Assembly (NCBI GenBank): GCA_001938485.1
Contig: MQRK01222709.1
Coordinates: 24,965-88,964 of the forward strand
Source of the DNA: Girardia tigrina
Taxonomy: Eukaryota
Length of the DNA: 64,000 nucleotides
Direction: 5' to 3'
Position 1 is the stretch's first letter. Each line of letters begins with the position of its first letter. The translations under genes were made by a program, and so were the position numbers. The notes below the pieces were generated by a model. The model searched no databases, was not told the DNA's origin, and saw only the letters and a program-made list of their open reading frames with translations. Shown piece by piece: positions 19,421 to 59,463 of the stretch.

Positions 19421-20510
19421 ACATGTATTATGTAGGCATATATATTAAACATATAAAACAAATTTTTGACAAAATTGTACAAATTTTGTATAAATATTAG
19501 AGTCCCGATGTAAGAGAAGCAAGATGTAAATCAGACGAAGATTGTATGAAAGGAAGAAATTTGATAACAGCATCTGGAATGTTTACCGGTAAATGTTTAA
19601 ACTATTCCTCCAAGTTTGGTTTGTGTGAAATCAGAGGCTGGTGCCCTACAGAAAATGACACATTACCATTAAAAAATGAACCTCTTTTTCCAATGGTAGA
19701 AAATTACACTGTTCTTATAAAAAACGACATTGAATTTCCAAAGTTTAAAGTTAAAAGGTATTTTTTTCTATAATATAAAAATTATTATAAATTATAAATT
19801 GCAGACGAAATGTGTTGGATTGGTCAGGAAAGAAGTTCCTCTATTCATGCAGGTACAAAGCTGAACACCAAGAAATGAAGTTCTGTCCCATTATAACTCT
19901 TGGAAGTATTTTCAAAGAAATAAAAGCACCCAAAAAAATGCTATCCGAGGTGAATAATTATAATTATGACCAAAAACAATACTTTCCTTAAAGGAGTAAT
20001 TCAAATTATTCCCCGTACAATTTGATAATTAATGTTACAGTCTACCAATGCGTAAAGAATAATTTATGAATGAAGTGGGAGTTTAACATCATTGTAATCA
20101 TTGTAATTATTATTGAAGCGTTTCGAATGATTCTTCAATATTTCTCTTTTTAAGAAGAATAATAAATAACGAAAATGTAATATTCATTATTTATTTGTCT
20201 GACAGAAAGACAAAAATTCATAAAAAATTACAATAATAAAATATTTCATTTTGTCCTTATAGTATTAACAAGCAAAAATCTTTAAATAAAATTAATCGCA
20301 ATATTTAACAAAGTAGTAATTATTTCCGTTCTTGAACTTTTAGAATGTAGAAAAATGACAATTTAATTGTAATGTATTGAGAAAATAAATGACTGAATTT
20401 ACATAAAATATTTGAAAATCAAAGTAATAAAAAATGTCAGAATACTATTTTCGAAAATTTATTTATATAATCAATTATAATGACTATTCACCATTTTCAG
20501 CCTATTTTTT

Positions 20511-39500: not shown

Positions 39501-42500
39501 TTGGAAACAAATATAAAAAAATTAAACGCCTTATTAAACACAAGTAGACGTATAATTGGATGAGCATATTCTCAGAAAACTACGGTAATAAATATTACGC
39601 TAACGGAAGACCATAAATTTTTAATAAACTAAAGAGTGAGTAAAACGACATCAAACAGCTAAAGAAAACGTTAAATATGATAAAAGATTTAATTACTTCT
39701 GGTTGAAAAAACTTAATAATTGATCAAAATTTAGCAAGATTAATAAAAAATAATGGGTTTAAAAATACAGATAAAAATATTAAAAATAAGATTTAAAACT
39801 AAAATTATCTTGAGAAACTTAGGTAACTGCAGTGATCTTCAATTAATTTCACAACCAATCAATTTAATTGAAAAGTGTCTTGAAGCGCGAATTTAATTAA
39901 TGTATTTATGTTAAAAAATTGTAACTAAAGCGGTGCGGGACAACTCGCCGAAAGCTCAATTTAGTTATGTAACTTTACAAAGGAAAAAAAGTCTAAATTT
40001 TAGAGTAAAACAATGGACAACTCGCCGAAAGTTAATTTTGGTTAAGTGTTATTATTAAAAAATGTAAATTTGTTGAGAGCGATTTCTTTTTAATTTGTAA
40101 ATGAAAAGATGTAAATTGGTAACTCTGCACAAATTTTTGAAATTAAAAAAATAAAGTTATTGATTGAAATTTGTCTTTGTACTGAAATTTAAATAAAAAC
40201 ATGAAAATCAACGCCAGCTCAGTTTAAAGGGAGCAAAAAATTATTCCAGATAATCCGGCGGTGAGAACTTTGGTATCTCCGTTTAGGTTCATAACTTTGG
40301 TCTTATTGATATTGATCTTTAGTCCTAAATCTACAAATGAGTCATTCAGTAGAATAAGGTTTCTGATAAGATTGTTCCAGTCGGTGTCTATCAGACAGAG
40401 ATCGTCCGCGTAAGCCAGTCTGTTGATCTCATCCCGCTTCAGCTCCCAGGAGATGAAAAACCGTTCAAATGTACCAAATGCAGCAAAGGTTACAAAACGA
40501 AAGGACGGTTCACTAGGCATCTGCGTAAAGATCATCGAATAGAAGCGAGGGAGAATATCAATGAACATCCGACAGAATCATCAGAGCAATCCAACAGAAG
40601 AAGCGACAATCCAGCCAGAGACGAAGAACCCACACTTATCCAAACGACCAATTTTCAGCCAGCAATAGTCACCCAGACTATTTCAACGGTGGTGGAGCAA
40701 ACGACTTATCCCGAAGATACACATTTGACTTTTAAGATCGCAGATCCAAATGCGAGGGGAAAGCTCAAATGTCCCTTTCGCGGCTGTACCAAGTCCACCA
40801 ATACAGCCAAAGGGTTGCTCAATCATGGTACCACAATTCATGATTGGTCGTTTGCAACAGGGAAGCCTAAAAATTTCGGAGACTGAAGCACTCCGTCCCC
40901 GTAGGAGGCCTACCGGAGGGCAGCTAGCACTCTTTAGTTTGGGTGGACCCTCTAAAGAGCCTAGTGGCTCAATACCATTCGAAAGAGATGGGAGGCCCAC
41001 ATTCCAGATAATAGGAAAAGCAAATAGGAAAGAAATATCTAAGTTCAACAGTAATTGAATCTAGAAAAACGCATCTTCAGTTGCAAAAGTTTCCCATCGA
41101 AATGAATTCAACTAAACCTTAATTTCACAACGAGCTCAAAAAGGATCAAACAGGTCAGACTAATCAACAAAAATGGAAAAGTGAAACGGCCCTTGTCAAG
41201 CCCATGTCTATAATTTTATAACACAGCATTAAAAATTACGAGTTCATGCTGAAAATGGGGGAAAGATATTTGATTATTAAATAAGAAAAGATGGCTTTAC
41301 ATGATATATTCCACAACTAGAGCTTTGAATAAATATGTTTTACTGATTTCTGTGCTAGTTTGGTTCCTTCGGAAAATAATCTTTAAAAACCCAAAAAGAA
41401 CCTAGGAGGACATATTTTTTTTAGTTGTTTTGAGTGATTTGATGTGAATATTTAACACTTCTTATTAAAAGATATCATAAATAAATTTTTTGATTTTTAT
41501 TCTAACCAGTCTTGGATAGTGATAAAATTTATATAAACCTTTAGGGCATCCTTTTGTCTTAATTATTCTGTATTGGTTTTGTAAGTGAAAACGAATTTCA
41601 ATGACCCCCAACATTTTTAGTGATGTTATGAAACCATTATTTAAATTTATCTGGCAAAACATCTAAAAAATATCAATTCTTCTGAAGAAGAATTGAATAT
41701 TAAGCCCAGTAAATGAAAAAATATATTATTTCGGTAAAACTTTGATCTTTTACTGCAAAAATTAATGAAATTAATTAATTTTTACATCAAAATTTTTCAT
41801 TAATAAAATATTGAATCTATTTTTTGCGAAATAAATTATTTGGATTTTGAAATAATATTCGTAAGAAATTAGAAATTAGGCGAAATCCCAACGACCGAAA
41901 TAGATGACATTCTATACGAATTTTATATATTATCAAAGAATTATAATGTCTTTAAATAAGTCCTATTAATAAAAATATTATCCCCCAAAAGATACATTAT
42001 TTCAATGTAAAAATTGTAATCTTTAATGAAATAATTCTAATATTTCTTGTGACGGTCAATTAATAATGATAATAATTAAATTTTTAATTACTAATCCGAT
42101 TTAATAATTAAAATTAACATGAAATTTTCATACATTAATTAAAACATTTTTTTCAGTTTATTTCTTTCGAAAGTCATGAAAATATTTTTAATGTTCTTCT
42201 TTCATTATTTTAGGAGACGTAAACGATTTTTGGTAAAAGAAATTTATAAAAGGAAAAAAATAATTTTTTTCTCCGGAATTTTCGTATTTATGGGAAAACA
42301 AAATTAATAATCTAATATTATTTGATTAAAATTTGATTGATGCCTTAATTAATTATGATTATAAATATTATTTCATTTTTTAATTAACATTAGTCATTTT
42401 TTTTGTTATTTTACTATGATATATTTTTTTCAGGTTTTTTTTGTCACTTGAATGATTCATTTATTTTCAGAAATTATTTTCTAAATTACATTATTTTTTA

Positions 42501-47983: not shown

Positions 47984-48891
47984 TATCTTAACCCTTCATA
48001 GATCTTTGTTACCTGTTATTATAACATTTAGATTCATATTTTACCACATTATGTAGTGTACATATTATTTTTATAAACTTTTTATTTATTTTATTTTATC
48101 TGTGGAAACATCACATAAAACTTTTGTGGCTAATTCCTAACCTAATTTATTAATTATATTTCAAATTCCATTGTCTCATTTTGCTTTTATTTTTCTGCCA
48201 ATTCAACAGTTATATTTTGCATAATAATTATTTTATGATATCTTGCAAATTTAATATATTATTTATTATCGATATTTAAGTTTTGGGACGTTTGTTAATA
48301 ATTTAAAAACGTGTGTTTTTAAATTTATAATTTCAAAATTTAGCTAATCTAAAGGCGGAAAAGATGGAGTATTTATATAATTTGATAAAAAGAGACGATC
48401 TTTATAAATAAAACTATCTAATAATATTCTATAATTCGTGTCTGACAGCAATAAAAACGGAATCAAATAAAATTAGAACAGTAGTCCATGTCCATAGGAC
48501 GTGCACCGAATTACCATTAAATACTCGAGCCAACGGGGTTTGAAGGATTTGAAATTCCTACATGGCAGTAGCAGACCTTTCTGGTGAGACATAAAATTCA
48601 TAAAAACATGTTATATCTGAAACAATGACATCAAAATAATTAAAAAAATAATTCTTTTTCATATTTGTGCATAATTTTACTTATTTTTTTATTATTTAGC
48701 TAAATATTATCGCTTATTTATATCGTGTTGCATGAGATATTTAAACAATGTGTCTATTTTTATATTGAATTATAAGTGGAATGATAAAATGTATTATGCG
48801 TTTTTTATGGCTTGTATTTTAATGGTCAGTATTTCCTTTAAACGGTCATTATAAAAAATACTTGAGCAAAAAAATTGTAAGTAAATGTTGG

Positions 48892-49473
48892 GATCGAGAA
48901 ATTTCCCAATCGACACCAGGCCAATTCATTAAGGGCGCACTGAGTCTGATGGAAAATTTCTCGGGATCTGAAATAAAATAAAATGATTATTAAATAAATA
49001 TAATATTAATTAATTAAAACTAACCTTAATTGATTTTGGACTTTGATCTGAAATAAAAAATATGATTATTAAAATTAATTGAAAAAAAACTTACTTAATT
49101 GATCTGACCTTTGGAATCTGAAATTATAAAAACAATGATTATTTATTTAGTAATAGAAAAAAACTTACTTGATCGATCTGATCTTTGATCCTTGTTGATC
49201 TGAAATGAAAAATATGATTATGTTTTTTTGATTGTAAAACTTACTTAATTGATTTGGACTTTGTTGTCGACAGATAACGGCAGGAGCTTATAGTGCCTGC
49301 CGAAACTGTTGACACAAAGTCCGGTGATCTCGAAATTTATGTGAAAATTTCGAAAACACGAATTATGTTTTCTTGATTTTAAAACTTACTTAATTGATTT
49401 GAACTTTGTTGTCGACAGATAACGGTAGGAGCTTATAGTGCCTGCCGAAACTGTTGACACAAAGTCCGGTGAT
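48892..49473 (-). ncRNA. Candidate spliced non-coding transcript: micro-exon array (exons 49390-49473, 49245-49328, 49169-49199, 49095-49117, 49025-49047, <=48967)
   Basis: Five introns of 61, 45, 51, 47 and 57 nt with GTAAGT/GTTAGT donors, TAAT branch-like motif and TTTCAG (or TTTCGAG) acceptors; no convincing ORF. Confidence 0.55.
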
Positions 49474-49510
49474 CTCGAAATTTATGTGAAAATTTGGAAA
49501 ACACGAATTA
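49245..49510. repeat. 145-bp tandem duplication, each unit holding a 67-nt hairpin (49256-49322, 49401-49467)
   Basis: GGACTTTGT-T-GTCGACAG-ATAA-CGGCAGG...CCTGCCG-AAA-CTGTTGAC-ACAAAGTCC. Confidence 0.9.
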
Positions 49511-49686
49511 CTATAAATTCGTTTGAATCTGTTATTTGTTAAAAAAGGTTTTTGTCTAATTGTTGATTACAAATTAATAAATTTTTCAATCTTCAGTTTT
49601 TGTGAGTATTTTAATTTTATTTTTTTTAGAGGTTGATGGAGTATAGATATAAATTGGACATATGCTAAAATATATTGCTGGGAGGC

Positions 49687-49948
49687 GATCAGTTGATAGT
49701 TACTGGCAGGTGCTCATAGTGTCTGCCATGATTGTTGACGATCTGGCAGTGAATAAGAAAAAGATCTTTAAAGAGAAATTAAGACAGCTGATCAGTTGAT
49801 AGTGACCGGCAGGTGCTCATAGTGCCTGCAGTGAGTGTTAACGACCATGCAGGGAATATGAAAAGATCTTGAAAGGAAATTGAAGACAGATGATCAGTTG
49901 ATAGTTACCGGCGGGTGCTCATAGAACCTGCCGAGTATATTGATGATC
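49687..49948. repeat. Three ~103-bp tandem units, each holding a 57-nt hairpin (49687-49743, 49790-49846, 49892-49948)
   Basis: GATCAGTTGATAGT.AC.GGC.GGTGCTCATAG...CTGC...GA(T/C)C; shares the core of the 145-bp units. Confidence 0.9.
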
Positions 49949-50672
49949 TGGTAGTCGAAAGAAATTGTTCTCTATAGAACATCTTAAATGTCACTGTCGA
50001 TGAGATAGTCTAATAATCAAACCTCCATCAACCTCAACCTTTTTTTGTTGTCATTGTTAAACCTTTAATATTAATGTTGGATAATTGATGAACATTTATG
50101 TTTTTAAGTTTATTTATATTCTTTTAAAATATTTAAAGATTATTCAGTAGAAATATAAGAAATCATCAAAATATAAAGCAACATGATATCAATAGAGATT
50201 TGTTCCTCTAGACAGGAGATGGATGAATATTTACAAAAAAAAGTTTACGAAGAACCCGGAAGGTATTTGATTTTGTTCACTGGTAAATCATTGGGCCAGA
50301 TGAACCTAATCGGGTACGATACGAACCATTTGCATGTATTAGAAGAGGAAAGATAGATGATGTTCGTATCAAAATAATGTGTTGGGTTTTATAATAAAAA
50401 AGAAATAATACATAAAAAAGATAATAAAAGCCTTACATAAACAACATGATCAGTATTGTAGGTATTTAGTCAGTATTTTAATTACGTTCCCAGTATGTTC
50501 AATCTACGATCAGCAAAATGGCCACTATTTTAGATATTTCATCAGTATTTTAATTAAATTAACGTTATATTTATTTAATGATCATTATTATATTTAAGAA
50601 GTTTATTTTGTACGATTAATAATTTTAAATCGAAAGCTATTTCACACATTAAAACAATATTTTTTAACATTT

Positions 50673-51990
50673 TGTAGTTTCTAAATAAAAATACAATAAA
50701 GCTAACACAATATTTATTTAAAAAAACTGTTTTCCGTTGTTTAATAATTTAAACAAATGAATTTTTTAATCCATTTCTTACACGCCCCCTGCCCTTAAGG
50801 CACACAGACAAACACCGTCTGAACAAGGGGAAATTTTCTTTTAATCTTCACTCCGAGATTCGGTGCATACGAAATCTTTTAATCTTGGTGGTGTCAAAAC
50901 TGTTCACTAAGGTCGCCCCCGTCGGTAGGCGCTTGCTGATTATCTTCTCTACGAGGTTCTGTTTCTGTATCTTTTCCTCACTCGATTCTCGCCGCTCACG
51001 TCATATCTTCGCCTTAATCGTCAACAATTTCTGTTTGAATTTGTTCTGTTGAGAGCACCCAACGCACGTAACTGATGTAATATGGCCTGATATTGACTTT
51101 GACTTACTGTTTTTGAGGCGCTCCCGATACTGTCGCTCAAGTCAACTTCGTCATGCAATTTGCTAATGGGGCTGGTTTAATTCGTCTTTCATTATTAACT
51201 GACTTTGTCTTTGGGGTGCTCTCGAGAAATCTTTCAAGAGAAGCAGTCTTCTTTTCTGTGTAAATACTGTGGACGCCTATATTATTCCGTCCGTATTTGG
51301 TGTTGCATTGTATCATGCAACCATTTTTCCAATCAATCTTCCACTTCGAGTCACCATCTTTTTAATCATACGGTGTCCACTCTCCACAATGCCTTTTCCA
51401 CTTGACCTGTTCACGCATCTAAAACAAGCGTCCACTCCTGATTGATCCAGCAGTCTTTTGATCCAGTTTCTTCTGAAGGTTCTGGAATTATTTAGAAAAA
51501 CTTCCGGTGGTCCGAACTCGTGGAATACACTTGCTAATGCTCAACAGATTTTCTCTTCATTCTTTGACTCGATTTGGCGCCAAATCATGAACCGCACCGG
51601 ACCACAATCCACCATTATTAGGAACTTTTTTCCTTCTACATATGTCGCGTCTACTGCCAGTCTTTTCCATGTTCTTTTGGAACTCAGTTCTTCTTTATCC
51701 CACTTGATTAGTGCAGGATCAATTGATGCGCACTGGATGCATCCTTTCACCACCGATTTTATCTAATCTCCCGAGACCCTATTCGCCCCTCACATCTTCC
51801 TCGCTAGGAACATTGTACGCTTCGTCCTGAAATGGTTGAATTCGTGTAGTTTTTAAACCATCAACTCCTTCGATTTGCGCCTCAGTTATGAATGCCGCAG
51901 CCACCGATGTTTCCTTTAATGTTGTTAACCAATGGCTTGGCACCACTGTTAGCGCATCTACTCTGTTTTCCTCTGATCGTGAAAAGAAAT
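50673..51990 (-). mobile_element. Ty3/Gypsy 3' fragment: integrase, PPT (50783-50798) and 110-bp LTR (50673-50782)
   Basis: CIQCASIDPA, WKRLAVDATY, MVDCGPVRF, EFGPPEVF; minus strand AAGGGCAGGGGGCG|TGTAAG...GAAACTACA. Confidence 0.85.
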
Positions 51991-55563: not shown

Positions 55564-56127
55564 TATTATTGAGTCTTCTGAACGCAAGTTTAGTATTTCG
55601 AAAATATAATTTGATTAAAGCTTTTTTATATAATTATTGGACATGTTTCGATGTTTACATACATCATCATCAGCAATTTTCGGATATTTAGTAAATGAAT
55701 ATTGAATTGTTTGAATAATACAATTTTTTACAATTTTAATAAATATAATTTACTTTAAAAGGTGACGAAAAAATTAAACATTATTTATGAAAATATTATT
55801 TGGTAATAATGGCAAAAAATATTTTAATTAAAAATTTTAAGTATTGATATAACCTTACTTTACCCATTCTGAATGTTAATTGATGGGTTGTAGTGTCTTA
55901 TTAGTAGAGATTCACAAAACTGTCGTTCGTAATTTGAATCAAAACCCTTTTGTAAAACAGAAAACTCATCTTTTGAAATGGATGAGGTTCTATCCTTACA
56001 ACATAACCAATGATCAAGAACCTTACTCGATCGACTCATTTGCGAGTGCTCGCTAATCCGGGTTTTGAGATGACGATTTGTCTCTCCGATGTACGAATTT
56101 TGACACCCGTGACAATTAAATTTAGTA
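55564..56127 (-). mobile_element. Penelope-like element 3' end: GIY-YIG C-terminus plus pLTR with hammerhead
   Basis: FNCHGCQNSYIGETNRHLKTRISEH...ESLLIRHYNPSINIQ; terminus abuts (TA)n. Confidence 0.9.
55636..55677 (-). ncRNA. Minimal type I hammerhead ribozyme
   Basis: AUUG-CUGAUGA-U-GAUGU(AUGUAA)ACAUC-GAAA-CAU-GUC^-CAAU: intact core, 4-bp stem I, 5-bp stem II, palindromic stem III ACAUGU. Confidence 0.85.
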
Positions 56128-56129
56128 GA

Positions 56130-56366
56130 ATTCCTTAAGAATTCCTTAAAAAGAAAAACATTCGCCAGTGATGATGACATCAAATCGTTCCTATATGGCT
56201 TTTTTGCTGAAAAAGGCATAGGTTTTTATGAATCAGGAATAATGAAGCTACCGAAAGTGATTGAAAATAATGGAAAGTATATCGTGTAAAAATATTTGTG
56301 CATCCATGTCATTTTTTGATAATAAATATTTTAGTAAAAAACGCAATGACTTTTTGGCCAACCCAA
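56130..56366 (+). mobile_element. Mariner 3' fragment with right TIR
   Basis: FASDDDIKSFLYGFFAEK..FYESGIMKLP..VIENNGKYI*; TIR ..GCAATGACTTTTTGGCCAACCCAA|TA. Confidence 0.8.
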
Positions 56367-56369
56367 TAA

Positions 56370-56750
56370 TTACTTAATAAATAATGCTTCAGTGATCATC
56401 CGCTCGAAATTTGTGTCAAAATTTTTACTCAAAACTTTGAATTCTTTTTCATATATATTATAGAGAATGGAGCTGTTTCTACTCATTTGAGTGTGTTCTG
56501 CAATTCTGTACGGAGATGACGACGTGTTTCTCCGATGTACAAGGATATACACTTGTGACATTGAAACTGATCAGGCCGACATTTAAACTGATAAACTATA
56601 TTAGCTTGTACACTCAAAGGAGTTTGTGATTTATTGCTAAAATATCTCGATAAATTATTTGTAGTAAATATTACTCTAAGCTTAAAACATGTAGGTATTC
56701 TTTTAATAAAAAATGTTTTAAAATGTTTTAGAAACAAATACAATTGATGA
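56370..56750 (-). mobile_element. Second Penelope GIY-YIG fragment (different subfamily)
   Basis: KSQTPLSVQANIVYQFKC..C...YIGETRRHLRT(fs)RIAEH..ERMITEALFIK. Confidence 0.85.
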
Positions 56751-56820
56751 TACCCAAAATAAAATTAGACTAATGTTGAAATAACCTGAAATACTCTGAA
56801 GGATCAAAAGACGGGTCTTT

Positions 56821-58195: not shown

Positions 58196-59463
58196 TTAGG
58201 GTGAACAAAAAGTCTTTTCGTATTTTCTACGTCTTTTTGTTCAATTGTTTCTTTTTACCAATGAAGATATTTTATAAACATGTGATATATGTTTTTAAAG
58301 TTCTTGAACTGCTCTATCACAATATATATTAAAACTTCTAATTAGTCATTAATATAATTTTTATGGTCTTTTAGAAAAATCATGGAAATTTTGAAATTCG
58401 TGTTCTTTTTACGCCATTACTGGAAACAGGGCTTAAACGTAACTGCAGCAACAAAGAAGATATGCAAAGTTGAAGGCGATAATGTGATCTCAAATCGTAC
58501 TGCACAACATTGGTTCAAAAGATTCAACGAAGGCGACATTGACCTCGGTGACAATGCACGTTCAGGCCGACCTATCACCGTAGATTCCGGAGCAATTCGT
58601 GAAGCCGTCGAGACAAATCCGTCAATAAGTACTCGTAGATTGTCGGCCGAACTTGATATTCCTCAAACATCTATTGTACGACACCTTCACGCTCTTCGTA
58701 AGGGCAATAGACGATGTCGTGAAGTGCCTCATGAATTGACACAAATTCAAGCCGAAAAGCGTTTTGAAACTTGTCAAAAATTGCTTGAAAATTCGCGCGA
58801 TGACCGTTTCATCCGTCAACTTGTACCTTGTGATGAAAAGTTGGTTTACTACAGTAATCCAAACCAACAAAATCAATGGTTTGACCCCGGTAGCAAAACG
58901 AGATCGTTTCTCAAGGAAGGCCCTTTTGTGTGTTTGGTGGAATTTCGAAGGCGTGATTCACTTCGAGCTGATTTCAAATGGTCGTACCATCGACGTTGAC
59001 CTTTACTGCGCCCAACTTGATCGAATGTATGTGGCACTTGGCGAGAAACATCCCGCTTTGATCAATCGAAAGCGAGTTCTTCTACAATAGGAAATTGCAA
59101 AACCGCACACCGCCAAACAAACAACGGAAAAAATCACAAATCTCGACGCCTTTGAACTTCTTCCACATCCAGCGTATAGTCCGGATCTTGCGCCATCTGA
59201 CTATCATCTTTTCCGCTCTATGGCACACTTTCTTCGTGGTCGCAGCTTCAATAATCTGGCCGAGGTCAAAAAATTGTCACCAGTTCTTCGCTTCTAAGAA
59301 CAAGGATTGGTACCGCAGCTGGATCACACAACTTGCCCATAGATGGGTTCAAGCTAGAGATTCAAATGGTCTTTACTTTGAAACTTAAATGTTTTTTTAT
59401 TTGTTGTAAAATTATGTTTAAATTTTTAATAAAAAATACGAAAAGACTTTTGGTTCACCCTAA
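58196..59463 (+). mobile_element. Near full-length mariner (1268 bp), transposase 58382-59388 disabled
   Basis: TIRs TTAGGGTGAAC.AAAAGTCTTTTCGTATTTT, TA TSD; EVPHEL, PCDEK, YSPDLAPSDY; frameshift near 58890, stop at 59088. Confidence 0.95.

Follow-up and report, generated by a model that had tools for sequence, protein, structure and literature searches.

Mini-introns arrayed in tandem within the LTR of a Girardia tigrina retrotransposon family, antisense to its gag

The window analysed here is a stretch of 64,000 nucleotides from a contig of the planarian Girardia tigrina (MQRK01222709.1). Between positions 48886 and 50437 it carries a solo LTR that has hundreds of copies in the genome, and the first third of this LTR, on its U3 side, holds a 360-bp array of four mini-introns. 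The carrier is an ordinary one; the new part is its unusual cargo. The reading that we favour, with a confidence slightly above even, is that the LTR of a gag-bearing Ty3/gypsy-like element encodes a non-coding antisense RNA that is spliced several times and carries hairpins.

The limits of the LTR are clear. Similarity among the copies spans 48886 to 50437 and is lost beyond, and identical 4-bp target site duplications (TSDs) flank the element at 48882–48885 and 50438–50441. Its sense is that of the plus strand, as in full elements the PBS and gag come after its right end. With 1,552 bp the window's copy is longer than most others (~1,300–1,460 bp). The termini are TG...CA with short inverted repeats, which in the window's copy bear two changes at the 50437 end, and two AATAAA hexamers near the right end (50393–50428, plus strand) are candidate sense poly(A) signals. 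Both ends could be paired for 26 copies: 17, the window's copy included, have a 4-bp TSD, seven abut element interior, one has a one-base mismatch in the TSD and one comes from a spurious second start. A search of the species' own genome with the array gave 1,203 first-look candidates, the best 40 non-self matches being 92–97% identical; with three probes the candidates numbered 1,203, 719 and 360 (40 scored for each). The first-pass annotation had described a stand-alone locus and had stated that neither a TSD nor a transposon protein accounts for the array. Both statements have to be withdrawn, as the solo LTR that contains the array is flanked by a 4-bp TSD and belongs to a high-copy, gag-bearing element to whose gag the array is antisense. 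The copy-number check proposed at that time thus returned a transposon LTR; one splice junction was nevertheless seen in a contig that is probably RNA (see below).

The region at ~50650–51760 had appeared as a decayed integrase-bearing element with the array in its 3' LTR. This was rejected, as the other copies end at 50437; the neighbour is a separate, older repeat. It is a decayed LTR element on the minus strand with integrase-like frames, a purine tract and a repeat for which 209 candidates of 76–87% identity were found. In a 3' LTR variant (contigs L031, L033 and L034) introns 2–4 are for the most part lost to an internal deletion; the flanks of these three are near-identical, so that they are possibly one locus.

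Five GT..AG blocks of 61, 45, 51, 47 and 57 nt are present on the minus strand where they had been described, each starting with GTAAG or GTTAG and ending with AG, next to exons of 84, 84, 31, 23 and 23 nt as claimed. The first block is private to the window's copy, and we number the four others as the family introns 1 to 4. In antisense order the array reads as follows. An 84-nt segment (49245–49328), with which the first antisense exon likely ends, precedes intron 1 (49200–49244, 45 nt). A 31-nt micro-exon (49169–49199; 24–26 nt in two older copies) separates it from intron 2 (49118–49168, 51 nt). Micro-exon a (49095–49117, 23 nt) leads to the putative intron 3 (49048–49094, 47 nt), and micro-exon b (49025–49047, 23 nt) to the putative intron 4 (48968–49024, 57 nt), the last two introns being called on sequence signals. 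The last antisense exon within the LTR occupies 48886–48967. The exons are richer in G+C (0.26–0.44) than the introns (0.09–0.25). The sole open frame terminates within micro-exon b, no ATG occurs in the internal exons, and the earlier view that the array does not code for protein holds.

The size match with the P2X receptor gene of the window was also borne out. Two of its plus-strand introns, read by eye, measure 44 nt (644–687) and 47 nt (19758–19804), so the sizes of the array introns are host-like. This gene (164–38400, plus strand) combines its two mini-introns with introns of many kilobases; its end lies ~10 kb from the array, and the genome has five intronless full-length P2X matches. 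A receptor gene located elsewhere in the genome shares 74% identity with a Schmidtea mediterranea protein across 97% of its length, well ahead of the next hit, as befits a planarian host.

A strict donor/acceptor motif is matched by four of the five blocks, which make up one chain. In 20,000 composition-matched simulations none reached a chain of three such introns (the longest was two), and the chain of four is not due to chance. The proposed tandem amplification of an exon-intron unit is also upheld: the four units are alike, with 11–12 of 12 end bases in common and interiors 58–73% identical. Retention of the splice signals while interiors diverge is thus seen between tandem units, and it recurs between subfamilies.

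The five-intron form itself stands only in part. The blocks exist, while the family norm is four introns and the first "intron" derives from a duplication. A 145-bp tandem duplication (49362–49506) occurs only in the window's copy, and its products are the 61-nt "intron" 49329–49389 and the additional 84-nt exon 49390–49473. The 40 listed matches to other copies all begin at query base 135 or later, so each has one 84-nt unit. As the duplication is missing from these 40 matches, we consider the five-intron form private to the window's copy.

The hairpins that had been announced are present. The 84-nt segment carries one of 67 nt (~49256–49322) with z-scores of -9.7 on the minus and -9.4 on the plus strand, so either strand folds; the last exon carries another (~48895–48963) with a z-score of -4.15, and one of 200 shuffles was equally good. 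The first is stable and falls within the 60–80 nt of a microRNA precursor. It displays no covariation: one of 1,400 cells was changed on both sides and 61 were broken. Rfam gave no match near threshold. In each of the four sequencing runs compared, contig depth peaks strongly at the central 40 nt of this hairpin (49275–49313), far above the rest; these 40 nt recur in contigs with unrelated flanks, some of which lengthen the palindrome; they may be a motif common to other repeat families. The same hairpin core is found in 103-bp tandem repeats further right in the LTR (49687–49931). Beyond the LTR edge, an antisense AATAAA lies ~40 nt away in all five distinct interior flanks.

The orientation of the element was read from its PBS and gag. 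A 15-mer directly behind the right end of the LTR, in plus sense, has 224 exact genomic matches. Of thirty such loci that were fetched, three belong to the family of the array and one to a distant relative; in the other 26 the 15-mer stands behind LTR ends of unrelated types, from which we conclude that it is a shared PBS. We take it to be complementary to tRNA-Pro; a scan of the 30 loci for tRNA genes found none. The PBS is followed, without a change of strand, by tandem repeats and a broken gag. That of copy L077 matches PF03732 with E 7e-4, below Pfam's cut-off, while the gag of a sister family, 59% identical to it, reaches E 1.3e-5 and has zinc knuckles. A homologue search with this sister gag gave no match at E 1e-8 among proteins of near length, and the gag frames are broken in all family copies seen. 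From these landmarks the array is placed at the U3 end of the LTR, on the strand opposite to gag, and is antisense to the genomic RNA.

Overlapping contigs join the LTR, the PBS, gag, ~4 kb of eroded coding-like DNA and a second LTR; both LTRs never occur on one contig, and the interior of ~8 kb is pieced together from these overlaps. When pieces of another family's pol were used as tblastn queries, the interior of the element gave no match. Ten interior ORFs matched no pol family, and no protease, reverse transcriptase, integrase or env was found inside. The sampled elements therefore look non-autonomous and apparently lack pol. Their Ty3/gypsy-like placement is provisional: it draws on gag, PBS and TSD, the pol order PR-RT-RH-IN not having been found. 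A polypurine tract was not found before the 3' LTR, where the sense sequence is not purine-rich. In its place, within the first 40 interior nt, stands a sequence nearly complementary to the PBS of the element itself (10 of 11 bases; L046, L048, L054, L011, L021), so that a PBS-like sequence faces inward at both LTR borders. Other LTR families with the same PBS (L143, L149, L151) have a second PBS-like copy ~45–75 nt inside the 3' end of the LTR.

An env-PR-RT-RH-IN block beside copy L048 was considered as the family's own, which would make an ambisense element. It was discarded because similarity ends at the junction in all 40 of the 40 other env matches: this env-pol belongs to another, more numerous family. 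The sequences concerned (L048:5708-10000 and L049) represent a distinct Burro-like family, itself abundant, in which PR-RT-RH-IN is immediately preceded by a fusion protein of mononegavirus type (PF24664); they are broken by stops and gave 756 and 2,352 first-look candidates.

We then turn to the splice signals among copies. In 56 distinct full-length arrays GTAAG is kept at donors 1 to 3 in 53, 47 and 48 copies respectively, and GTTAG at donor 4 in 49; with the strict motif all four introns are complete in 15 of the 56, the window's copy among them. Precise loss of an intron was seen in none of the sampled loci, whose contexts over-count copies; the smallest exon-exon gaps at the four junctions are 40, 45, 33 and 37 nt. 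A subfamily B, represented by copy L020, differs from the window's copy between intron 1 and exon a at 33 of 141 non-signal columns (~23%) and at 0 of 19 donor/AG positions (p ~0.006 by our own arithmetic), a comparison limited to one segment that was picked after the difference had been seen. L020 has one acceptor changed from CAG to TAG and an exon a of 22 instead of 23 nt, a difference that shifts the frame, and three complete introns parse in just 8 of 16 subfamily-B copies. An acceptor that appeared lost in subfamily B in the alignment columns is explained by a one-base shift.

Fourteen older copies, 69–89% identical, retain the architecture of the array; they were picked by their splice-motif pattern and are a biased sample, four of them truncated or deleted. 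In 12 of the 14 the last acceptor is complete, although for most of these copies it had played no part in the selecting pattern. Donor 4 is complete in one of the 14, as against 49 of the 56 young copies, and the acceptor upstream of the 84-nt segment in none. Changes found in single copies number five on the eight GT positions, to be compared with 0.41–0.55 per site in exons and intron interiors. As such singletons hit GT as often as other sites, individual insertions show no sign of selection on their splice sites. The idea of selection for splicing is thus divided: signals are spared between subfamilies, and no constraint is visible at the window's insertion. If there is any constraint, it would act on the transposing lineage and mainly concern introns 1–3 and the last acceptor. 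Nineteen stretches upstream of the PBS in other LTR families, many of which may fall short of U3, contained no chain of three introns (the longest was two), so the array is not a general property of LTR families.

Contigs of four runs (X1, X2, X4 and X7) were compared with 49095–49361; that X1 is RNA is a guess. One X1 contig skips 49118–49168 exactly, joining 49117 to 49169 with CT..AC on the plus strand, i.e. GT..AG on the minus strand. The joint has no ambiguous bases and a depth of 19.5, the neighbouring unspliced contig a depth of 9.95; the joined contig is 85% alike, with 23 nt on the short side of the joint. The joined form is absent from the sampled genomic copies. Slippage between tandem units is an unlikely source, because it would drop an exon together with an intron (70–80 nt) and not 51 nt. 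For the intron at 49200–49244 no joint was listed in the four runs and unspliced contigs cross it; X2, X4 and X7 showed no joint at all, though their word shares are small and absence is not implied. No contig of the four runs could be assigned to the window's own copy. In X1 and X4 the exon bins are deeper than those of the introns; as contig depth is no guide to the ranking of parts, this was given no weight. The predicted spliced form is thus seen at one junction, exactly, in a probable-RNA contig of one run out of four, and intron 1 shows no joint.

According to the reading that we favour, an antisense Pol II promoter would lie further right in the LTR, and three or four mini-introns would be spliced out of its transcript. 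A short RNA from a 3' LTR would end at the AATAAA ~40 nt beyond the edge; at solo LTRs transcription may alternatively read through into the flanks. Reverse transcription uses RNA of the gag strand, where the spliceosome does not recognise these sequences as introns, and this explains why they are kept whenever the element inserts anew. Splicing would stabilise and export the hairpin-bearing antisense RNA, which could dampen the sense promoter or feed a small-RNA pathway; within this reading, such a use is the likeliest, at about even odds. The stronger proposition, that the LTR family amplified and kept the U3 mini-intron cassette solely to get its antisense hairpin RNA spliced, we hold to be possible but doubtful. 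If it were true, each of hundreds of solo LTRs would be a ready-made gene for a spliced non-coding RNA that tunes silencing or makes small RNA, and the family would offer a compact natural test bed for why antisense RNAs of retrotransposons get spliced.

Other explanations were weighed against this one. The array could be an enhancer-like tandem DNA element of U3 whose motifs are protein-binding sites resembling splice sites, any splicing being incidental. The 103-bp tandem repeats of the same LTR would suit this, as would the palindromic hairpin core whose central 40 nt recur with unrelated flanks, the single junction seen and the lability of donor 4. But the donor, a TAAT motif and the acceptor are correctly ordered at the length of host mini-introns (44–57 nt), the exons are richer in G+C than the introns and the junction is exact. 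Moreover, a genome search with a generic acceptor-exon-donor-intron-acceptor pattern yielded 235 matches where its control yielded 35; of the 100 listed, 95 were assigned by eye to the LTR family of the array. We consider this explanation unlikely. Still less probable in our opinion is that a longer antisense mRNA, running from a 3' LTR into the interior (as in HBZ or Retand) or from a solo LTR into host DNA, has the array as its spliced 5' leader. The literature describes spliced antisense transcripts from the 3' LTR in HTLV and BLV (PMC10186651), plant LTR elements with antisense ORFs (PMC7264820) and, in Echinococcus, the ta-TRIM elements (PMC4558846), with which the solo LTRs that make up most sampled copies compare in that they could drive flanking RNA. 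Against a leader are the AATAAA within ~40 nt and the longest stop-free antisense frames, which reach 65–80 aa in the first 1.2 kb of the interior (two copies).

If the LTR had taken up, in reverse orientation, part of a host micro-exon gene and carried it as passive cargo, host-like intron sizes would also be expected, and antisense introns outlast reverse transcription without any selection. Yet the units are paralogues of one another, most exons have lengths that are not divisible by three and that differ between subfamilies, the signals are spared in subfamily divergence, and no single-copy parent appears among the best 40 matches scored per search; we give this origin little credence. Finally, a locus-specific host non-coding RNA gene, unrelated to the transposon and under selection at the site of the window, is largely refuted and very improbable. 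The window's copy does have all four family introns complete, but so have 15 of 56 copies. The TSD, the LTR ends and the hundreds of copies (92–97% identical for those listed) speak against such a gene, as do the singletons that strike GT as often as other sites and the lack of any read assigned to the window's copy.

Among known systems, schistosome micro-exon genes have coding micro-exons whose lengths are multiples of three, and a signal peptide. The array differs from them by exons of 31, 23 and 23 nt, without ATG and with a stop in the chain. The closest parallel is found in Drosophila, where the antisense RNAs of HeT-A and TART are non-coding with several small introns, most TART introns measuring 53–104 nt; the size and spacing of introns are similar across diverged subfamilies, and the role of splicing is described as unknown (PMC2615633, PMC1636488). 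The likeness lies in an antisense, non-coding anatomy with several small introns in the terminal region of a retrotransposon. However, HeT-A and TART are telomeric non-LTR elements with introns spread over kilobases, whereas the array resides inside the LTR of a dispersed element, is a tandem-amplified unit with exons of 22–31 nt and is present in every solo LTR. These features keep the array outside the HeT-A/TART group, though this is the group that it would most resemble in its working.

Antisense promoters are described for several LTR elements (PMC7264820, PMC10974842). The spliced antisense RNAs of HTLV-1 (hbz) and BLV (AS1/AS2) begin in the 3' LTR; hbz codes for a protein, and AS1/AS2 are short and probably non-coding. 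These are vertebrate retroviruses, and an array of mini-introns and micro-exons, as in the planarian LTR, is not mentioned for them in the available part of that source (PMC10186651). The microRNA cassettes of foamy-virus LTRs contain strong hairpins transcribed by Pol III (PMC7693620), unlike the planarian hairpin, which is located within an exon of the putatively spliced array. The Burro elements are giant gypsy-like elements of planarians whose gag has CCHC knuckles and is followed by more coding sequence, with tandem repeats in the interior; the planarian host, gag followed by further coding-like sequence and interior tandem repeats are shared with the element of the array. Burro has env in frame between gag and pol and an interior of up to 25 kb (PMC6431247). 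The element of the array is set apart from Burro by an interior of ~8 kb, an LTR of ~1.4 kb and the failure to find env, reverse transcriptase or integrase; an ancestry from a deleted Burro-like element is possible. A literature search that covered few subscription papers or repeat databases turned up no description of tandemly arrayed mini-introns within an LTR or in a planarian element, and the LTR family may already be catalogued somewhere.

Spliced non-coding antisense RNAs of retrotransposons are thus already known from the telomeric elements of Drosophila and from retroviruses, where the role of splicing is called unresolved. LTR elements of planarians are controlled by PIWI in somatic cells (PMC8532177). 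With subfamilies and older copies to compare, in a PIWI-controlled group, the array makes the question of splicing easy to test. It is also a hazard for annotation, as such arrays would be called novel lncRNA genes at hundreds of loci. The window contains further repeats, identified by eye: the pieces at 40353–41060, 58358–59388 and 55860–56764 are presumably a non-LTR fragment bearing a zinc finger, a mariner-like transposase and GIY-YIG-like (Penelope-type) sequences, respectively.
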